Position numbers and translations under genes: made by a program. Under the pieces are notes generated by a model. The model saw only the letters and a program-made list of their open reading frames with translations. It was not told the DNA's origin and searched no databases. 64,000 bases of DNA, taken from positions 44,711 through 108,710 of the forward strand of contig JBGAKG010000005.1 of assembly GCA_044224495.1 (NCBI GenBank). The letters run 5' to 3'. This document shows, in pieces, positions 3,701 to 42,864 of this stretch. This DNA comes from Polyangiaceae bacterium (GTDB taxonomy: Bacteria > Myxococcota_A > Polyangia > Polyangiales > Polyangiaceae). Numbering within the stretch: position 1 is the first letter of the stretch; each line of letters opens with the position of its first letter.

Positions 3701-6248
3701 AGTTCGCGATCGGGAGCTGGGGCGCGGCCTTGGCGAGCGCGACGAGATCCTCTCGCCGCGCGGCGAGATCGCCGCTGCGGAGGATGATCTCGAGCCGCAG
3801 CACGGCGGCGCGGAGCGGATCGCCGCAGGCCTCGGCCACGCGCTCGAGCGCCACCGCGAGGGGGAGCTCGGGATCGGTCGCAGCCGCGGCGCGAGCAGCC
3901 GCTTCGTTCGTGGGATCGGCGGCGAGCGCCGAACCGTAAGCTGCCGCGGCGCGAGGAGCGAGCCCTGCACGCTCGGCGACGATGCCGGCGGCCAGGCTCG
4001 CTTGCGAGGTGTCGGACCAGCTCGCGAGGGCGGCGGAGACCTCTTCGATCCGACCGGCGGCGGCGGCTTCCTCGATCCGAGCCGCGCGGGCGAAGGACGG
4101 ATCGTGAGCGTCGAGCGCGTCGAGGCGGGTGGGGTCGAGCTTGCCGGCGGCCATGCCGCGCCCGACGCGGAGCGCGGCCTTCGTCGCGTCGTCGCCTTGG
4201 ATGGCGTCGAGGCGGACGTCGAGCGCGGCGGACGGATCCACGAGCGCGGCGCGGAGCGCGGGCGCGACGTCGTCGCCGAGCGCGGGCTTCACACCCGCGA
4301 GCGCGGAGAGGACGGCGCGCTCCTCTTCGTCGAAGCCTTCGCCGCCCGCGGCGGCGCGAAGCGAGTCGACGTCGCCCAGCTCCAGCGCGCGCGCGGCCAG
4401 CGCTCGTTGTGCGCGCGGATCGGTGGCGGCCAGACCCTGGAGCAGCGTGACGGCCTGCGCGCGAGTCGAGCTCTTGGTCGCGGCGAGCGCGGCGGCGAGC
4501 CAGTGCGCTCCCGGTTGGAGCGCGGGCGTTGCGCCGAGCTCTTGGAGCTGCGCGCACGCAGCGGTCGTGTCGTTGCGCTCCAACGCGACGCGGGCGCGGC
4601 GGAGCGCGCCCTCCGGCGAGGAGCCCCCCTCCTTGCGGTCGACCCCACGCAGCCCGAGAAGCGTCGACACGGCGTGGGCGACCTCGGTCAGGTGCGGTGC
4701 ATCGGGCACGCGGAGCGTCGCGGACGGAGGACCGTCCTGCGCGAGGCCCCGCGCCGCGCGCTGGACCACGACGCGCGCGTCGTTCGGCGCGAACCGCGCC
4801 GCTTGCTCGAGGCGCTTCGACGTGGCCTCGTCGTCCCCCGTCCGCGCGATGAGGTCGGCGGCCAGGAGGGCGTCGTGGAGCTTCGCCAGCGGCGGCAGCG
4901 CGAGCTTCGCCTCGGCGTCGAGGCGTGGAACGAGCGTGTCGGCCTCGAAGGGAACGAACGCGCGCGCTTGGCGGTGCGCGAACGCGAGCGACGGGTTCGC
5001 CTCCAGCGCTTCGCCGGCGAGGCGCTCGGCCTCGTCGCGCTGTCCGAGGATGGCGCGGAGCTCGCTCGCGGCGAGCAGGCAGCGCGCGCGCCCGGACTTG
5101 TCGAGCATGTTCTGGGCTTCTTCCTCGAACATCGTCGCGCGCGCTTCGAACGAGGGGCGCGCTTCGTCGGGGAGCCAATCGTTCGCGGGCTTCTCGTCCT
5201 CGAAGACGACGGCGCCGCGGAGCTCGCTCGGACCGGGCGCCGGCGCGGGGGCGACGACTTCGGGCTCGCGCACGGACTCGTGGGCGATGTCGGCGGCGGC
5301 TTCGATCGGTGCATCGAGCAGGGCCGCGAGCTCGGCGTCCTCGTCGGCGAGCGCCGGCGCGGAGAGCAGCTCGTCGGAGCGGACGAGCTCGGCTTCCTCG
5401 GACGCGATGCGCTCGCGCGCGGGCGGGAGCTCCTCGATCGCGGGCGCGGACGGTGCGGGCGGCGGCGGGGCGGCCGGGCGCGGCGGCATGGCCGGGCGAC
5501 CGGCGGCGGGCGGCGGCGGGGGCGGCGGTGCCGCCTGCTCGCGAGCGGCCTCGATCTTCGCGCGGAGGGACGAGAGATCGGCCACGCTCGTCGCGGCGTC
5601 GCTGTCGTCGTCGGGAGGTGGGGGCGGCGGGAAGCGCGTGGGCTGGTCGTTCTTCACCGGCTCCGGCGCCGGGTCCTGGAACGGATCGAAGAGCGCGCCA
5701 TCGGGCACGTGCGGTTCGACGTCGAGCGTGGCGAGCTGCGGGCGCACGCTCTGGCGAGGCGCCCCTTCGGCGCCGACGTCGATCGCGCTCGTCACCACCG
5801 CTTCGTCGTCTTCGTCGCTCCCGCTCGTGCGGCGCGGTCCGGGCTCGTCGAAGAGCACGTCCAGCGCTTCGTCGTCGCTCGAGGGTGCGGGGCGCGCGGG
5901 GGCGGACGACTCGCCGCGGCCGAAGAGCTGCCCGAGCCCACCGCGCTTGCGCGGGATGGCGGGCGGCTTCGCGATCGGCTTCGGCGGCGAGACGCGCGCC
6001 TGCTCGAGCAGGTGCGAGGCCGTCGGATCGAGCGTCTCCTGCGGAGGACGATAGAGGGCGGGCTGCTTGGCGCCGGGCGGGACGGGCGGAGGGGGCTTCG
6101 CCGCCGCGGGCTTCGGGCTCTTGCCCTCTTCCTCTTTCTCTTTCTTCTCCTTCGCGAGATCGGGCTCGAACGGCTTCTTGTCCCACTCGGAGAGAGCCGC
6201 ATCCCAGTCGAAATCGTCGAGCGGAGACTTGGTGCCGTCGTCGGTCAT
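723..6248 (-). CDS. Giant TPR-repeat protein (1841 aa) with Pro-rich acidic N-terminal region
   Basis: Single ORF with protein-like composition and GC3 bias. N-terminal about 350 aa low-complexity (PPPPPP runs, DE clusters), then several hundred aa of TPR-like helical repeats, then a non-TPR C-terminal domain. Start ATG overlaps stop of upstream gene (ATGA at 6245-6248). Confidence 0.75.
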   Translation of the reverse strand: MTDDGTKSPLDDFDWDAALSEWDKKPFEPDLAKEKKEKEEEGKSPKPAAAKPPPPVPPGAKQPALYRPPQETLDPTASHLLEQARVSPPKPIAKPPAIPRKRGGLGQLFGRGESSAPARPAPSSDDEALDVLFDEPGPRRTSGSDEDDEAVVTSAIDVGAEGAPRQSVRPQLATLDVEPHVPDGALFDPFQDPAPEPVKNDQPTRFPPPPPPDDDSDAATSVADLSSLRAKIEAAREQAAPPPPPPPAAGRPAMPPRPAAPPPPAPSAPAIEELPPARERIASEEAELVRSDELLSAPALADEDAELAALLDAPIEAAADIAHESVREPEVVAPAPAPGPSELRGAVVFEDEKPANDWLPDEARPSFEARATMFEEEAQNMLDKSGRARCLLAASELRAILGQRDEAERLAGEALEANPSLAFAHRQARAFVPFEADTLVPRLDAEAKLALPPLAKLHDALLAADLIARTGDDEATSKRLEQAARFAPNDARVVVQRAARGLAQDGPPSATLRVPDAPHLTEVAHAVSTLLGLRGVDRKEGGSSPEGALRRARVALERNDTTAACAQLQELGATPALQPGAHWLAAALAATKSSTRAQAVTLLQGLAATDPRAQRALAARALELGDVDSLRAAAGGEGFDEEERAVLSALAGVKPALGDDVAPALRAALVDPSAALDVRLDAIQGDDATKAALRVGRGMAAGKLDPTRLDALDAHDPSFARAARIEEAAAAGRIEEVSAALASWSDTSQASLAAGIVAERAGLAPRAAAAYGSALAADPTNEAAARAAAATDPELPLAVALERVAEACGDPLRAAVLRLEIILRSGDLAARREDLVALAKAAPQLPIANFLAEREARRAADVDAVVELVRERSALASDPIEKAVDQVREAFLVADTDTTLAAGLLEEALRARPDDVAVRELLERISPTPPTDRAEWRASRAAAATGSAKSLLLLEAAWDYERQEQPEAALAAIRQIGEPTTMAPLARVALERVEVAAGDAARLADELLTEARSAGSVRARSEAYERLAELDRHARNDPASALLWRRTILEETPDHAASLRHVEHALMDGRRDDELEPILAAIATYLKGTGGEALSHAEIAARFRMNGNQWDATLPLAELAVAEKVPSLWALRLRNAHARAKDDDEALLATTKSLIERCTRPGELATLLLRATEAATRLGRPDEAKAYILRATTEDAADTRAWRLLSEVHLAAGEHGPAAEALESVARTATVEEHRVDAYYGAAIAWTEAGDEERAVAALEQVASANVTYKDVFPRLSRLYAKRGARTELASLLERRIGTVLDPEERVDLEVDRGRVLAEIGDPGAAKEAYEAALAIKPDHVGALGAAADLAFQEKDWEGAEQAWVRLVRLLPQPEEQLAIYRRLGALYAEQLANYSRAEVAFQEVLKRAPDEIQVREQLVDVYKRQNDPARALEAQQDLIKRAPDSKTKQKRLVELAAIYEYVSHDLRKAEQTLEAARREFPSDVAALRALAEYYVRQKQAPAVNILLDRAAGDARRALAAGRINAALFETMQTVYELRNKEDAGKVVRASLAALKNETPSRDQLMRGGEARALDPRLDDLLAPELLTAAARALLTRTGSALDAAVPLDPRTLRANPYPPTEPAARLAIGLAQAAGVPNLQLFVSPQLGRACVPGASPSPILVLGEELVNEPREVARAFLITRGVKLLQLHGSAFARLPPGDLPVLVGAWLKAFVPNWSPQGIAPGPLAEAGRRLAAGMPRQLDPDLGAMALEVIGGVGPQIAALGAAVLSIANRTALLAVGEPSAALDALAWASGPKVSGAPATEQERVSFLSRNAEVKDVFAFTLADAYMDARGRLGVR

Positions 6249-12522: not shown

Positions 12523-14043
<1,521 letters not shown>

Positions 14044-14121
14044 TCACGCGCTGCGCGGGCGTTCAAGAGGGTGGGGGCGGACGGTCTGCTCAACCAGGGG
14101 AAAAAGGACGAATCCGGAGTC

Positions 14122-14151
14122 GAGAACGGGAACGGGAATGGGAATGGAAGG
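14122..14151 (+). repeat. GGGAAY hexamer tandem repeat (about 4 units) in promoter region of 14174..15010
   Basis: acgggaacgggaatgggaatggaagg located 20-50 nt upstream of the ATG at 14174. The same GGAAC core recurs in the palindrome downstream of that gene. Confidence 0.5.
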
Positions 14152-14173
14152 AGACGACTGCTAAGGGTCAGGC

Positions 14174-15010
14174 ATGCGCGGCGTTGGCCTTCCGTTGGCG
14201 CTCTCCGTCGCCCTCTGGGCGGGCGTGGGTGCTGCCGGGCCCATCGCCGTCGACAACCAGCCCCCCGAGTGGAGCGGGCTCGAGTCCGAGTACGAGACGA
14301 AGGCGGGGGAGCGGCTCGACTTCACGCTCCGCGCGACCGATCCGGAGAACGATCCGATCCGGTACGAGGTGCGCGGGCTCCCCTTGAACGCTCGGGCCGT
14401 CGCCGGTGACGGCGGCGTCCAGGTGAAGTGGGACACCGAGGAGTCCGAGGCAGGGTCGTATCCGATCGAGGTCTTCGCCACCGACGGGAAGACCACCATC
14501 TCCAAGAAGGTGATGCTCGTGCTGGCGGAGAAGTCGGAGAGCTTCTTCGTCCCCGGCGTGGGCTACGAGCTCTTCGTCCCGAACGCCCCGAGCAAGCTCG
14601 GCTACATGAACGGGTTCCGGATCGAGTTCCTCGGCGCGAGCTACGTGCACCGGAACGCGAAGCCGGGACCGAGCCACGGCCGCTTCTTCGTCCATTTCGA
14701 CGTGCTCCTGTCGACGAAGGAGGACGTCCCGGCCGCGTTCCTGCCGACCCTCGGCTTCGACTTCTCGTTCGAGCGCAACCCACCGCGCCGCTTTCTGATC
14801 CCGTTCTTCGGCCTCGAAGGGGGCGCCTGGTTCAACGGAACGACGGGCTCGCTCGGCTTCATGCACCCGTTCGCGGGGGTGCACCTCTACACCAAGGCGA
14901 ACCTCTTCTTCAGCCTGCGGGGAGGCTACTTTCTGCCCTTCACGTCCGAGCAGTTCGACGTGGTGCGAGGGGTGCGCGCGTCGGCCACGGTGGACCTCTC
15001 GTTCTGGTGA
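14174..15010 (+). CDS. Secreted Ig-like (cadherin-like DPENDPIRY) domain protein fused to a probable outer-membrane beta-barrel (C-terminal ...LSFW)
   Basis: Signal peptide; putative Ig domain with DPENDPIRYEV motif. C-terminal half has alternating aromatic/Gly strands and an aromatic C-terminus typical of outer-membrane proteins. Confidence 0.6.
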   Translation: MRGVGLPLALSVALWAGVGAAGPIAVDNQPPEWSGLESEYETKAGERLDFTLRATDPENDPIRYEVRGLPLNARAVAGDGGVQVKWDTEESEAGSYPIEVFATDGKTTISKKVMLVLAEKSESFFVPGVGYELFVPNAPSKLGYMNGFRIEFLGASYVHRNAKPGPSHGRFFVHFDVLLSTKEDVPAAFLPTLGFDFSFERNPPRRFLIPFFGLEGGAWFNGTTGSLGFMHPFAGVHLYTKANLFFSLRGGYFLPFTSEQFDVVRGVRASATVDLSFW

Positions 15011-15019
15011 GAGAAAAGC

Positions 15020-15156
15020 CGAACAGGGAACACGGAACAGGAATTCGGAACGCGGAACGCGGAACGAGAACACGGAGCGCAGAGCGGGAACAGCGCGTGT
15101 TCGGGGTTCGGGTTCCGCGTTCCGCATTCCCGATCCCGTTCCGTGTTCCCTGTTCG
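15020..15156. repeat. 137-bp near-perfect palindrome built of CGGAAC/GGGAAC units; probable bidirectional terminator or MITE/REP-like element
   Basis: Perfect 19-bp terminal inverted repeats cgaacagggaacacggaac (15020-15038) / gttccgtgttccctgttcg (15138-15156). Inner arms gcggaacgcggaac / gttccgcgttccgc. Central perfect palindrome gaacagcgcgtgttc (15088-15102). Lies exactly between the stop codons of convergent genes (15010 and 15167). Confidence 0.65.
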
Positions 15157-15166
15157 TCTTCTTCTT

Positions 15167-17047
15167 CTACTTCTCGATGTGGAACTCGACCCGCCGGTTC
15201 GCCTTGCGCCCCGCATCGCTGGTGTTCGGCTCCAGCGGCCGATCGGGTCCGAAGCCCGCGCTGGCGAGCCGTGCCCTGTCGATGCCGTGCGCCACGAGCC
15301 ACTTCACGACCGACGCGGCGCGGTCGCCCGACAGCTTCTTGTTGAACGCGGCCGGGCCCTGGTCGTCGGTGTGACCTTCGACGTTCAGCTTCGTGATCTC
15401 GGGGTGCGCCTTCAGCACGCCGAGCACGGCGGTGAGCACCTCTTCGCTGTCCTTGCCGGGGAGGATGTCCGCGCTCCCGGTCTTGAACTTCACCTGCTCG
15501 AGGATCGTGATGACCCCGCCGTTCACGAACGCCATCGGGCACCCGTTCTTCTTCGGGTCGGTGTTCGCTTTGCCGGGCTCCTTCGGGCACGCGTCGAGCT
15601 CGTTCTCGATCGCGTCGCCGTCGAGATCGGCAGGGCACCCGTTGAACTCGGGCTTCGTCGACGCCTTGCCGGGTTGGTCGACGCACGCGTCGTCCTTGTC
15701 GTAGATGCCGTCGCCGTCCTTGTCGGGTGGGCAGCCGTTCTTCTTGGGGTCGTCGCTCGGGACGCCCGCGACGTCGACGCACGCGTCCTTCGCATCGGGT
15801 ACGCCGTCACCGTCCTTGTCCGGCGGCGGCGGCGGGGGCAGGGCCACCGGCGGCTCGGCGGGGCAGCCGTTCGTCGCGCGATCGAGCGAGCGCGGACCGG
15901 GGACACGCGGGCACGCATCTTCCCCATCGGGGACACCGTCGCCGTCGCCGTCGGCCGGGCACCCGTTCTTGTGCGGGTCGTCGCTCGCGACGCCGGCGGT
16001 CGTGGGGCACGCGTCCTTGCCGTCGCGGATGCCGTCGCCGTCCGTGTCGTCGCGGTAGGGCGGCGCGAGCTCGAGCGACGCCATCCACCGCCGCTCCGGC
16101 GCGCCGAAGCCGCGCGTGAGCCCGAAGCCACCGCCGACGCCGAACCGCACGGGGCCGGCCGTGTAGTGCGCGCCGAGCAGCACCTCGACCGGGACCTCCG
16201 GCCCGGTGTCCTCGGGCGCGCCCGAGAGCGACGCCTGCGACGGGTTGCTCGTGAAGACGGCGCTCCCGAAGAGCTCCGGCCCGATCACGAGGTGCCGGTC
16301 GAGCACGCGCACGCCCGCCGCCGCGGCCCAGGTGAGCTCCTGTCCGATCCGCGTCGCGCCGAAGAACCGCTCCGGTCGCCCGAGGTTCGCGCCAATGCGT
16401 GCAGAATACACGAAGGGCCCGATGTCGCCCGCGACGAGCAGCCGCGGCGCGATCCGGAGGTTGCCGTCGCTCGTGTAGTCGCTCGGGTTCCCGCTCGGGA
16501 AGTAGATGCCGAGCCCCGCGGCGAGGGTGAACGGGTCGCCGTACTCGCCGAACACGCGCAGGTCGGCCGTGAAGCGGAAGTCGCCGAACGACTGATCGTT
16601 CTCGGGCCCGGCGATGATGCTCTTCCCGAACGTCGCCTGATGGCCGTCTTGGAAGACCACGACCGGCACGTCGAGCGCGACGCGGAGGCGCTCGAAGAAC
16701 ACCATCGCGGCGCCGATGTGGAGCGTCCCCACGTTGCGGAGCGGGCTCAGCCGGATGTCGCCGTTGGGCGCGTTCACGACGAGCGGGCGGTATTGCCCTT
16801 CCATCACGACGCCCACCGTCGGGCGCAGGTGCCCGCGCACGTCGAGCGAGTCGTTCGCGAACCACTCGCTCCCACGGACCGCGGGATCGAAGCGGTTCAT
16901 CGAGATGCCCGGCTCGACCGCCTGCGCGGAGGCTGCTTCTTCGCGGGCGGCGAGCGCGCCGAGCGCGACGAAGGCGCCGAGCGCAAAGCGAGAAAGGCGA
17001 GCGGAACGAACGGACCGACGCGACCGAGGCGTACGCCGAGGAGTCAT
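15167..17047 (-). CDS. OmpA-family outer membrane protein with thrombospondin type-3 (Ca-binding DxDxDG) repeats
   Basis: Signal peptide, N-terminal beta-barrel-like region, multiple DTDGDGIRDGKDACP / DKDGDGVPDAKDAC TSP3 repeats, C-terminal OmpA/MotB peptidoglycan-binding domain (NRRVEF). Confidence 0.85.
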   Translation of the reverse strand: MTPRRTPRSRRSVRSARLSRFALGAFVALGALAAREEAASAQAVEPGISMNRFDPAVRGSEWFANDSLDVRGHLRPTVGVVMEGQYRPLVVNAPNGDIRLSPLRNVGTLHIGAAMVFFERLRVALDVPVVVFQDGHQATFGKSIIAGPENDQSFGDFRFTADLRVFGEYGDPFTLAAGLGIYFPSGNPSDYTSDGNLRIAPRLLVAGDIGPFVYSARIGANLGRPERFFGATRIGQELTWAAAAGVRVLDRHLVIGPELFGSAVFTSNPSQASLSGAPEDTGPEVPVEVLLGAHYTAGPVRFGVGGGFGLTRGFGAPERRWMASLELAPPYRDDTDGDGIRDGKDACPTTAGVASDDPHKNGCPADGDGDGVPDGEDACPRVPGPRSLDRATNGCPAEPPVALPPPPPPDKDGDGVPDAKDACVDVAGVPSDDPKKNGCPPDKDGDGIYDKDDACVDQPGKASTKPEFNGCPADLDGDAIENELDACPKEPGKANTDPKKNGCPMAFVNGGVITILEQVKFKTGSADILPGKDSEEVLTAVLGVLKAHPEITKLNVEGHTDDQGPAAFNKKLSGDRAASVVKWLVAHGIDRARLASAGFGPDRPLEPNTSDAGRKANRRVEFHIEK

Positions 17048-20940: not shown

Positions 20941-21330
20941 GTGGCGAACGAAAGACCTGCGGTTCGCGAGACCGCAGGTCTTTTGCTTTCCATCGGCTTG
21001 GTCGCTGCAGCCGTGCTCGCCTGCGGCGACCCGGCGTGGAGCATGACCGGCACCGTCGTCGACGGCACCGGTGCACCCGTGCCGGGTGCCACGGTGAAGG
21101 TCCTCTGCCCCGGCAAGGCCGCGCCGTGGGAGACCGCGACCACCAACGATGCGGGGGCCATCTCGATGGGCGGCATCCCCGCTGCTCCTCCGAACTGCAC
21201 GGCCGAGATCTCTGCGGCCGGACACGCGTCGGAGACCGTCCCCGTCGGCTCGTTCTGCTACCGGAGCACGACCGCCGGAAACTACGGCTCGCCATGCGCC
21301 CCGGGAAGCGGCAAAGTCGTCCTTCCATGA
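20941..21330 (+). CDS. Small lipoprotein with carboxypeptidase-regulatory-like (beta-sandwich) domain; start codon uncertain
   Basis: Lipobox LAC; [18 protein letters not shown]... C-terminal [14 protein letters not shown]. Track start overlaps the rpoD terminator, so the true start is probably an internal TTG/GTG. Stop overlaps next start (ATGA at 21327-21330). Confidence 0.5.
20953..20990 (+). terminator. Rho-independent terminator of dnaG-rpoD operon
   Basis: 11-bp perfect stem agacctgcggt / accgcaggtct, 7-nt loop, followed by T-rich tttgctttc, 23 nt after rpoD stop. Confidence 0.7.
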
Positions 21331-41721: not shown

Positions 41722-42864
41722 ATGGAGACGATCGGCGAGTACAGGGTCGTTCGGTTGGTGGGTGAAGGTGGGATGGGGAAGGTCTACGAGGCCGAAGAGC
41801 GCCTCTCGGGGCGCCGCGTCGCCCTGAAGGTCCTCCGCCCCGAGCTGACGGGCGACGACGAGGGCCGCCGCCTCTTCACCAACGAGATGAAGATCCTCGC
41901 GCAACTCGAGCACGAGAGCCTGGTCCGCAGCCTCGCGTCGTTCGAGCACGAGGGCCGCTTGGTGCTCGTGCTCGAGTACCTCGAAGGCGAGACGCTCCGG
42001 AGCCGCCTCCAGCGCGTGGGCAAGCTCGGTTGGATGGACGCGGTCGGCATCGCCGCCCGCATCGCCGCCGCGCTCGAGGTCGCGCACGAGAAGGGCATCG
42101 TCCACCGCGATCTCAAGCCCGAGAACGTGATGCTCGTCGGTGCGCCCGGGGAAGGCACGGCCGCGAAGGTGATGGACTTCGGTGTCGCCAAGATCCTGTG
42201 CGCGCACACGGGGAACGTCCCGTCGCAGAGCGTGGGCACGCTCCAGTACATGAGCCCCGAGCAGATCGACGCGAAGCCGATCGATGGCCGCAGCGATCTC
42301 TACGCGCTCGGCCTCTTGCTCTACGAGATGATCGGCGGCGCTCCGCCGTTCCGCTCCGCGTCCCCGCGCGAGCTCCTGAACCTCCAGTGCACGGCCACGC
42401 CCGCGCCGCTCCCGAACGCGAGCGAGCTCCCGCGCGGCGTGCGCGAGCTCGTGACGAAGCTCCTGGCGAAGGCGCCGGGCGACCGCCCCCCGACGGCCGC
42501 GGACGTGAGCCGGACGCTCGCGCCGTTCCTGCCGGACGCGCCCGAGCCGCTGGCAGCCAAGGCCGAGACCGAAGCCAAGGTCGAGACCGAAGCCAAGGCC
42601 GAGACCGAAGCCAAGGCCGAGACCGAAGTCAAGGCCGAGCCGACGCAGGAGCCCAAGGCCACCGCGGAGGCGCGCACGCCGATGCCCGCGCCGAAGCGTG
42701 CGCCGACCGCCCGCGCGTCGCGCGAGGTCGCGAACCGCAAGGCCGTGGTGGTGCTGCTCACGGCGGGGCTCCTCTCGTTCGCGCTCACGTTCGCCGTTCG
42801 CCAACAAATGGCGGAGGGAAAGAACTTTTCCGAGGCTGTCTCGTCCCTGGTGAAAACGCCATGA
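41722..42864 (+). CDS. Hanks-type Ser/Thr protein kinase with C-terminal TM anchor and (AKAETE)n repeat linker
   Basis: GEGGMGKVY, VALK, HRDLKPEN, DFGVAK, SPEQ subdomains; 18-bp in-frame tandem repeat; C-terminal TM helix VVVLLTAGLLSFALTFAV. Confidence 0.85.
   Translation: METIGEYRVVRLVGEGGMGKVYEAEERLSGRRVALKVLRPELTGDDEGRRLFTNEMKILAQLEHESLVRSLASFEHEGRLVLVLEYLEGETLRSRLQRVGKLGWMDAVGIAARIAAALEVAHEKGIVHRDLKPENVMLVGAPGEGTAAKVMDFGVAKILCAHTGNVPSQSVGTLQYMSPEQIDAKPIDGRSDLYALGLLLYEMIGGAPPFRSASPRELLNLQCTATPAPLPNASELPRGVRELVTKLLAKAPGDRPPTAADVSRTLAPFLPDAPEPLAAKAETEAKVETEAKAETEAKAETEVKAEPTQEPKATAEARTPMPAPKRAPTARASREVANRKAVVVLLTAGLLSFALTFAVRQQMAEGKNFSEAVSSLVKTP
42556..42639 (+). repeat. 18-bp tandem repeat x4.7 (gccaaggccgagaccgaa) encoding (AKAETE)n inside the kinase gene
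   Basis: Four near-identical 18-bp units plus a partial unit, in frame. Confidence 0.8.

Follow-up and report, generated by a model that had tools for sequence, protein, structure and literature searches.

Between two convergent genes of a Polyangiaceae bacterium lies a 137-nt palindrome with perfect ends. It sits in a 64-kb stretch of DNA (64,000 nucleotides of contig JBGAKG010000005.1, all of which was analyzed and which we call the window), and a short run of GGGAAY hexamers stands on the upstream side of one of the two genes, which encodes a 278-aa secreted-type protein. What kind of element is this palindrome, and do the two repeats belong to one device? A first-pass annotation had described them as a repeat system bracketing a single gene, and had offered three roles for the palindrome: a mobile element, a cruciform-forming bidirectional terminator, or an array of sites for a GGAAC-recognizing regulator. 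We found that the palindrome is a heptamer-repeat hairpin of a known, poorly understood kind, built from a new unit and located in a lineage from which the kind had not been reported before. At a probability of roughly 55%, we favor the reading that it is a lineage-specific inverted pair of heptamer repeats which grew in place and which acts as a bidirectional terminator or 3'-end barrier.

The palindrome forms one long hairpin of heptamer repeats

The ends of the palindrome are perfect 19-nt inverted copies of CGAACAGGGAACACGGAAC, which matched the window twice against 0.02 matches expected, and the inner arms GCGGAACGCGGAAC / GTTCCGCGTTCCGC are nested inside these outer repeats, both as first described. 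Folded alone, the 137 nt gave a single hairpin of 56 bp, with an energy of −93.7 kcal/mol as RNA and −55.9 kcal/mol as DNA. With the flanks included, the energy was −101 kcal/mol for each strand (z between −11 and −11.5), none of 200 shuffles was as good, and no inverted repeat in the window was stronger. Its G+C content lay below the 70% of the window as a whole (Table 1).

Both arms are tandem arrays. Successive unit starts were spaced 7, 7, 6, 7, 7 and 7 nt and so on, that is, mostly 7 nt with a few 6-nt units, and Tandem Repeats Finder (TRF) returned a period of 7 for each arm, counting 8.3 copies in the left arm and 5.7 in the right one. Read unit by unit, the left arm is CGAACAG GGAACAC GGAACAG GAATTC GGAACGC GGAACGC GGAACGA GAACAC GGAGCGC AGAGCG GGAACAG. 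The string GGAACNNGGAAC occurred five times in the window (0.11 expected), all five within the palindrome. At the apex we found an imperfect 5-bp stem that lies 7 nt, or one unit, off the center of the outer arms. The 137-nt element held no perfect palindrome of 8 bp or more, and the perfect central 15-bp palindrome that had been proposed, GAACAGCGCGTGTTC at 15088-15102, is not self-complementary. A triplex (H-DNA) was rejected on reading the sequence, since the arms are not homopurine.

The convergent gap measures 156 nt, and the palindrome nearly fills it, with 9 nt left over toward the left stop codon and 10 nt toward the right one. These remnants contradict the statement that a U-tract is missing. 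The left flank, GAGAAAAGC, is A-rich and the right flank, TCTTCTTCTT, is T-rich, so that the hairpin is followed by the tail GCUUUUCUCUC in minus-strand RNA and by UCUUCUUCUUCU in plus-strand RNA.

Searches for known elements gave little. With Rfam 15, the only match in the region at E ≤ 1 was a spurious one to MIR847 (38.6 bits against a gathering score of 184), which scored for hairpin shape alone; nothing in the whole window reached a gathering score, and a tRNA scan found nothing. A consensus scan for sigma-70 promoters and terminators called neither the palindrome nor the upstream hexamer run. We rejected an assembly artefact, given that the flanks are unique genes in conserved synteny and that a second assembly has the same sequence. 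This second assembly is a 1.35-kb Logan contig (L001, SRR28480385), the only public contig with an identical 278-aa protein; it comes from an independent short-read assembly, matches the window, and its end coincides exactly with the final base of the palindrome. Short-read assemblies break at long palindromes of this kind, and data of that type will contain too few of them.

The upstream GGGAAY run proved real as well. Its core, (GAACGG)2(GAATGG)2 at 14124-14147, contains three successive GGGAAY units, a pattern found nowhere else in the window and expected zero times in shuffles, and on folding it showed no structure of its own (z +1.4). The palindrome arms are GGAACNN with a period of 7, whereas the upstream run has a period of 6. 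A right-arm segment at 15125-15142 shares this period of 6, and its reverse complement is identical to 14129-14146 of the upstream run at 16 of 18 positions, a better fit than to its own pairing partner in the hairpin. The two segments, GGAACGGGAATGGGAATG upstream and GGAACGGGATCGGGAATG as the reverse complement of the right-arm segment, form an imperfect inverted repeat around the whole gene, which on its sequence could reflect a common origin or could allow the 5' and 3' untranslated regions to pair. The run and the palindrome are probably two local simple-repeat features of common origin, which leaves the notion of a bracketing system weak.

Table 1 Features of the window around the palindrome
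Feature	Coordinates	Strand	Remarks
atpD (F-type ATP synthase beta subunit)	12523..14004	−	divergent from the 278-aa gene
Upstream hexamer run	14122..14147	+	solo hexamer simple repeat GAGAACGGGAACGGGAATGGGAATGG; GAGAAC GGGAAC GGGAAT GGGAAT GG, 26-52 nt before ATG
Gene for 278-aa secreted-type protein	14174..15010	+	no Pfam match of its own; homologs with He_PIG/Big_9 Ig-like domains
A-rich left flank GAGAAAAGC	15011..15019	+	minus-strand RNA tail after hairpin, GCUUUUCUC
137-nt palindrome (heptamer-repeat hairpin)	15020..15156	none	63% G+C; minimum-energy fold, inverted-repeat search
Perfect 19-nt terminal repeat, left copy	15020..15038	+	CGAACAGGGAACACGGAAC
Left purine-rich arm	15020..15093	+	about 10-11 GGAACNN units; TRF and unit starts
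Right pyrimidine-rich arm	15099..15156	+	9 NNGTTCC units; TRF and unit starts
Perfect 19-nt terminal repeat, right copy	15138..15156	−	CGAACAGGGAACACGGAAC
T-rich right flank TCTTCTTCTT	15157..15166	+	tail of plus-strand RNA after hairpin
Gene for OmpA-family protein with thrombospondin type-3 repeats	15167..17047	−	convergent to the 278-aa gene
Canonical intrinsic terminator after rpoD	20941-20990		GAAAGACCTGCGGT-tcgcgag-ACCGCAGGTCTTTTGCTTTCC with A-tract and T-tract

Palindrome and upstream run are recent gains at a variable locus

The 278-aa protein had 25 detectable relatives, and the loci of nine of these were retrieved (all loci are given L numbers); its gene is syntenic in all relatives. 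Five lineages, with 57-82% amino-acid identity, retain the same convergent pair, separated by 15 nt in L002, about 21 nt in L011, 6 nt in L012, 10 nt in L232 and 12 nt in L235, against 156 nt in the window. When aligned to these orthologous sites, the palindrome stood out as one clean block of ~140 nt that is present in the window only, which answers the check for presence/absence polymorphism that the first-pass annotation had called for. The upstream hexamer run was likewise a clean insertion of ~40 nt relative to L002, the one of the five lineages whose upstream site was looked at in detail and in which the run is absent. The tiny gaps in the five lineages and the lack of the run in L002 indicated that both the palindrome and the run are recent gains.

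The closest relative, L007 (89% amino-acid identity), carries other repeats on both sides of the gene. Upstream, an 84-nt hairpin of GGGAAT/ATTCCC hexamers and GAACC units (L007 409-492; −53.5 kcal/mol, z −4.2) replaces the solo hexamer run of the window, and downstream, purine-rich repeats of ~7 nt (GGAGACG...) continue up to the contig end. These differing repeats fit with a fast-evolving simple repeat, not with a conserved site. Contigs encoding the same protein, P0003, also had different downstream flanks (L008 and L009 versus L010). The palindrome thus shows rapid variation in length and presence between related genomes, and by these comparisons both flanks of the 278-aa gene are hot spots of fast-changing simple repeats in the sub-lineage of the window, with neither feature conserved.

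Such variability bears on the proposal that the GGAAC/GGGAAY units are protein binding sites, through which an extracytoplasmic function (ECF) sigma factor or a response regulator would control the gene from both ends. The −35 element of ECF sigma factors resembles GGAAC, and a shared core motif upstream and downstream of one gene, with the 16-of-18 identity described above, is what such control would predict. However, five orthologous lineages lack the palindrome and L002 lacks the upstream block, no other GGAAC cluster was found in the 64-kb window, units spaced by 7 nt do not keep phase with the DNA helix, and unrelated units show the same architecture at equal or higher frequency (see below). 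The lack of conservation in these alignments already largely refutes the regulator-site reading, which we consider very improbable.

A single copy in the window, without signs of mobility

Neither a second copy of the palindrome nor of its ends was found in the 64-kb window. Among 241 million metagenome records, the exact 19-mer end gave four unrelated single matches and never a pair; a plasmid search gave no match to the palindrome, and 60 kb of flanking DNA from the relatives contained no similar element. No target-site duplication was visible against the empty orthologous sites, which come from diverged relatives, and GAGAAAAGC to the left and TCTTCTTCTT to the right do not form a direct repeat.

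These results weigh on the idea that the convergent gap received a mobile element resembling a MITE (miniature inverted-repeat transposable element) or a repetitive extragenic palindromic (REP) sequence, whose 19-nt ends or hairpin would be recognized by a transposase acting in trans. The palindrome does share traits with MITEs and with REP sequences and their composites, the bacterial interspersed mosaic elements (BIMEs): it is an extragenic palindrome near stop codons that fills an intergenic gap, has perfect 19-nt terminal inverted repeats and no coding capacity, falls at 137 nt within the 50-500 bp of MITEs, and is polymorphic in presence relative to its orthologous sites. Some related elements elsewhere are moreover multi-copy with conserved centers, namely those of Fimbriiglobus (L039, L051, L056 and L086) and those at L041, L117 and L136. 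In contrast to these systems, the window palindrome shows no sign of multiple copies, of a family consensus or of a target-site duplication, and its ends are ordinary repeat units without a distinct terminal sequence. REP and BIME palindromes are imperfect, measure 20-40 nt, share a family consensus over tens to hundreds of copies and have a cognate transposase, whereas this one measures 137 nt and occurs once in the window. We identified no transposase associated with it, although no search for REP-associated tyrosine transposases (RAYTs) was made. With one copy in 64 kb, unpaired ends in metagenomes and nothing similar beside the relatives' genes, the mobile-element reading is unsupported, and we regard it as improbable.

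A widespread class of period-7 inverted repeats at gene ends

We scanned 185,579 species genomes with the pattern GGAACNNGGAACN{35,65}GTTCCNNGTTCC and obtained at least 120 stretches with GGAACNN...NNGTTCC pairs, against ~17 expected in the whole collection by arithmetic that treats bases as independent and identically distributed. The hosts among the matches listed included Gemmatimonadota (Gemmatimonadales), Planctomycetota, Acidobacteriota, Chloroflexi, Verrucomicrobia, Selenomonadaceae and cultured Xanthomonadales. The figures in this paragraph and the next refer to the listed loci. Most matches far exceed the pattern, with 3-13 units per arm, a unique center of 20-60 nt and complementary arms, and the variable NN positions were complementary between the arms at 65 of 129 loci, whereas 17 were expected and 2000 shuffles gave 30 at most.

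For gene context, coding strand and frame were called from third-position G+C content (GC3) in high-G+C loci, a design in which distances above ~40 nt are invisible. By this measure, of 85 genes that point into an element, 65 have their stop codon 0-36 nt ahead of the first unit, whereas 7 end within the first arm and 13 continue through the element. The GGAAC pairs lay between co-directional genes in 49 cases, convergent genes in 11 and divergent genes in 6. For ~20 nt past the last unit the T fraction rose to 0.22-0.34 from a background of 0.16, and 27% of the flanks contained a T-rich window, compared with 3.7% of random positions. Perfect repeats of three or more units that lay outside the selected elements were mostly of period 7 (n = 33; periods 5, 6, 8 and 9 gave 1, 6, 2 and 1), and many of these were again inverted pairs, with units such as CAGTGGT, GCTATCG, AAGATAT, ATCAGCC, AGTCCGT, AGTCGTC and GGGACTG.

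The GGAAC core itself appears to carry no special weight. As controls we used three composition-matched units in the same inverted layout, and in viral contigs they gave 11 (GAGCA), 17 (GACAG) and 50 (AGCGA) loci, against 9 for GGAAC; the control loci were mostly true multi-unit palindromes. Control units being as frequent or more so, what recurs is the period of 7 nt together with the inverted layout and the place at stop codons, not GGAAC, and a special role of this core was rejected. As to arm order in the viral contigs, the G-rich arm came first at 9 loci and the C-rich arm first at 7. The AGCGAAT/ATTCGCT heptamer pairs (L182-L231) were frequent in IMG/VR contigs of 55-69% G+C (50 loci); the spacer was complementary between the arms at 34 of 54 sites, both arms had at least three units in 33, and a literature search found no description of these viral pairs.

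Copying was evident at other loci. A multi-copy REP-like family, GGAACCGGGAACGCAGTGACCGGGTG-loop-CACCCGGTCACTGCGTTCCCGGTTCC, lies 2-6 nt past stop codons in L039, L051, L056 (two copies) and L086, from Fimbriiglobus and other metagenome-assembled genomes (MAGs) of Planctomycetia. Heptamer hairpins with a conserved center were duplicated in L041 (3137-3483, three tandem copies 134 nt apart), L117 (~600-700 and 3780-3880) and L136 (four copies in 6.2 kb), indicating that at least some members of the class spread by copying. L114 contains three GGAAC-heptamer hairpins within 1.5 kb (3793-5337), each adjoining the 5' end of a minus-strand gene. As read from the sequence, these genes begin with a prepilin-type GFTLLE motif, and the repeats may lie inside the leader-coding region on that strand.

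The window palindrome belongs to this class by its tandem 7-nt units, its complementary convergent second array and its non-coding position close to both stop codons. It does not show the high copy number of one unit type per genome seen in Xanthomonas or Nostoc, with one cluster in the 64-kb window and none in the relatives' 60 kb.

Comparison with known heptamer repeats

The nearest published counterparts are the GGGAATC heptamer repeats of Xanthomonas, of which Rehm et al. (2015; PMC4692102) counted ~185 per genome, including 70-75 cases per genome of two nearby repeat sites in convergent orientation. They are mostly non-coding, lie at most 50 bp from a stop codon, are rare between divergent genes, are transcribed and vary in length and sequence between species, and no function was found (PMC4692102). 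Like them, the window palindrome has G-rich 7-nt units with a GGA(A) core in which a G-rich array is followed by a complementary one, is intergenic and within 50 bp of a stop codon, is not linked to insertion sequences (IS) and varies markedly among related species; rarity between divergent genes is likewise a common trait. Unlike them, it is built from GGAACNN, occurs once in 64 kb, and has degenerate arms that are nearly fully paired in one long stem without G-quadruplex potential.

G-quadruplexes (G4) were proposed by the authors for the GGGAATC repeats, and G-rich heptamer repeats do form G4 in vitro (PMC4692102). By extension, a non-B structure, whether G4 or i-motif, might modulate transcription at the window locus, and many listed members of the class are indeed (GGGGAAC)n. 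Yet the left arm has two runs of at least three G, where a canonical G-quadruplex needs four G-tracts, the competing hairpin is worth −94 kcal/mol, and the class includes the G-poor units AAGATAT, ATCAGCC and AGCGAAT. A G-quadruplex was rejected on this count of GGG runs, and a role for such structures here seems the least probable of the readings that we considered.

In cyanobacteria, 7-bp short tandemly repeated repetitive (STRR) sequences fold into hairpins in the spaces between genes, as in the hupS-hupL interval, and roles in transcript stability, translational coupling or termination have been put forward for them (PMC2670836). The window palindrome resembles STRR sequences in having intergenic 7-bp tandem units able to form a hairpin, and differs in unit and phylum; STRR sequences recur many times in a genome, often as direct arrays alone. 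Beggiatoaceae have TAACTGA heptamers (PMC4679880). Our literature searches returned nothing specific on GGAAC-type heptamers or on myxobacterial intergenic repeats of such kind.

Probable origin and effect of the hairpin

Under the reading that we favor, the layout of a left GGAACNN array, a short irregular center and a right array of complementary units would have grown in situ within a formerly tiny convergent gap. Replication slippage would add 7-nt units, and intrastrand template switching would copy one arm onto the other, so that the arms stay complementary despite a register shift of one unit; the hexamer run before the gene would be a solo array from the same local repeat stock. This mode of origin is suggested by the repeat structure, the one-unit shift, the complementarity of the arms and the match of 15125-15142 to the upstream run. 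For the Xanthomonas repeats, Rehm et al. cited the idea that heptamers fit the active-site footprint of DNA polymerase (PMC4692102).

As to effect, both convergent transcripts would read into the palindrome, and each RNA would fold the same ~56-bp hairpin 9-10 nt past its stop codon, with a U-rich tail after it. This hairpin could then serve as a bidirectional transcription stop, as a barrier to 3'-exonucleases, or as both, which from sequence and position appears the most economical reading, and we infer that the palindrome is not a sequence-specific protein site. A terminator-like effect is suggested by the A- and T-rich flanks, by the T enrichment past the last unit across the class and by the terminator after rpoD (a stem, then the tail UUUUGCUUUCC), from which it follows that the host does use terminators made of a hairpin and a U-tract.

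The likeness to bidirectional intrinsic terminators is partial. Like them, the palindrome lies between convergent genes a few nucleotides past both stop codons, and has an A-rich 5' flank, a G+C-rich hairpin and a T-rich 3' flank. Unlike them, it has a stem of ~56 bp instead of 5-14 bp, an irregular apex instead of a 3-8-nt loop, interrupted U-tracts and internally repetitive arms; a G+C-rich hairpin after the stop codon is thus present, whereas a compact stem, a small loop and an uninterrupted U-tract are not. The earlier suggestion of a cruciform or bidirectional terminator accordingly stays plausible from position and flanks, with stem length and the hairpin-free relatives weighing against it.

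Several observations count against this explanation of effect and origin. The stem, about five times the canonical length (the first-pass annotation was right that the element is longer than a normal terminator), is far beyond known intrinsic terminators and would make the RNA a substrate of RNase III, so that the mRNAs could be destabilized rather than protected. The plus-strand tail has no run of three or more U. Across the listed loci, most members of the class stand between co-directional genes, with little space on either side, and full termination there would cut operons apart; a clear T-rich tail follows in only 27%. Some members elsewhere are multi-copy with a conserved center (L041, L117 and L136), which makes copying a possible route of spread for elements of this kind. 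Finally, five related lineages are essentially without a hairpin at the site, so no function is required here and the palindrome may be neutral.

This last point leads to the main rival, in which the palindrome is a selectively neutral by-product of slippage expansion in an unconstrained gap, with no role in expression. The 6-21 nt gaps without a hairpin at all five more distant orthologous loci agree with it, as do the flanks that are hypervariable even among contigs encoding an identical protein (L008 and L009 versus L010), the lack of a conserved unit sequence or center across the class, and the failure of published work to find a function for the Xanthomonas heptamers (PMC4692102). A neutral origin alone does not readily account for class members that sit tightly past stop codons and are depleted between divergent genes (listed loci; PMC4692102), or for arm complementarity far above chance (65 of 129 listed loci versus 17), and a 56-bp RNA hairpin 10 nt past a stop codon would hardly be without effect on the transcript once made. 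We consider neutrality possible, though on the doubtful side.

A bolder extension would treat the gene-end, period-7 inverted hairpins as one class across phyla, with a dedicated origin (7-nt-locked slippage with arm-to-arm templating) and a shared job. We offer this tentatively and think it rather unlikely. If it were true, the repetition in the arms would allow the RNA stem to nucleate in any register, and in genomes with few U-tracts this would bring about fast co-transcriptional termination or 3'-end protection. The window palindrome would then be a newly arisen member, and the half-array upstream of the gene a trace left by that process.

Other features of the window

Between atpD and the 278-aa gene, a 39-nt block at 14030-14068, GCGC(C/G)GCGCGAATATCA(C/T)GCGCTGCGCGG(G/A)CGTTCAAGA, has three variable positions only across six lineages, in intergenic DNA that is otherwise unalignable. 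The block probably serves atpDC or the 278-aa gene as a promoter or operator, and it was not called by the consensus promoter scan. The top-scoring tandem repeat of the window lies at 42555-42643, where the 18-nt unit AGCCAAGGCCGAGACCGA occurs in 5 copies with 94% matches, probably as a coding 6-residue repeat.

Implications

At this locus, the palindrome is best described as a young, dispensable hairpin between the genes for a secreted protein and an OmpA-family protein, and should not be annotated as a mobile element or a regulator site. The result of wider value is the breadth of period-7 inverted-repeat hairpins across phyla and unit sequences. Heptamer-repeat hairpins had previously been reported only for cyanobacteria and Xanthomonas, and are now seen adjoining stop codons across many soil phyla as well as in viral contigs, built from many kinds of unit. 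A systematic census, joined with Term-seq, could tell terminators, stability elements and neutral slippage products apart, and could explain the preference for 7 nt.

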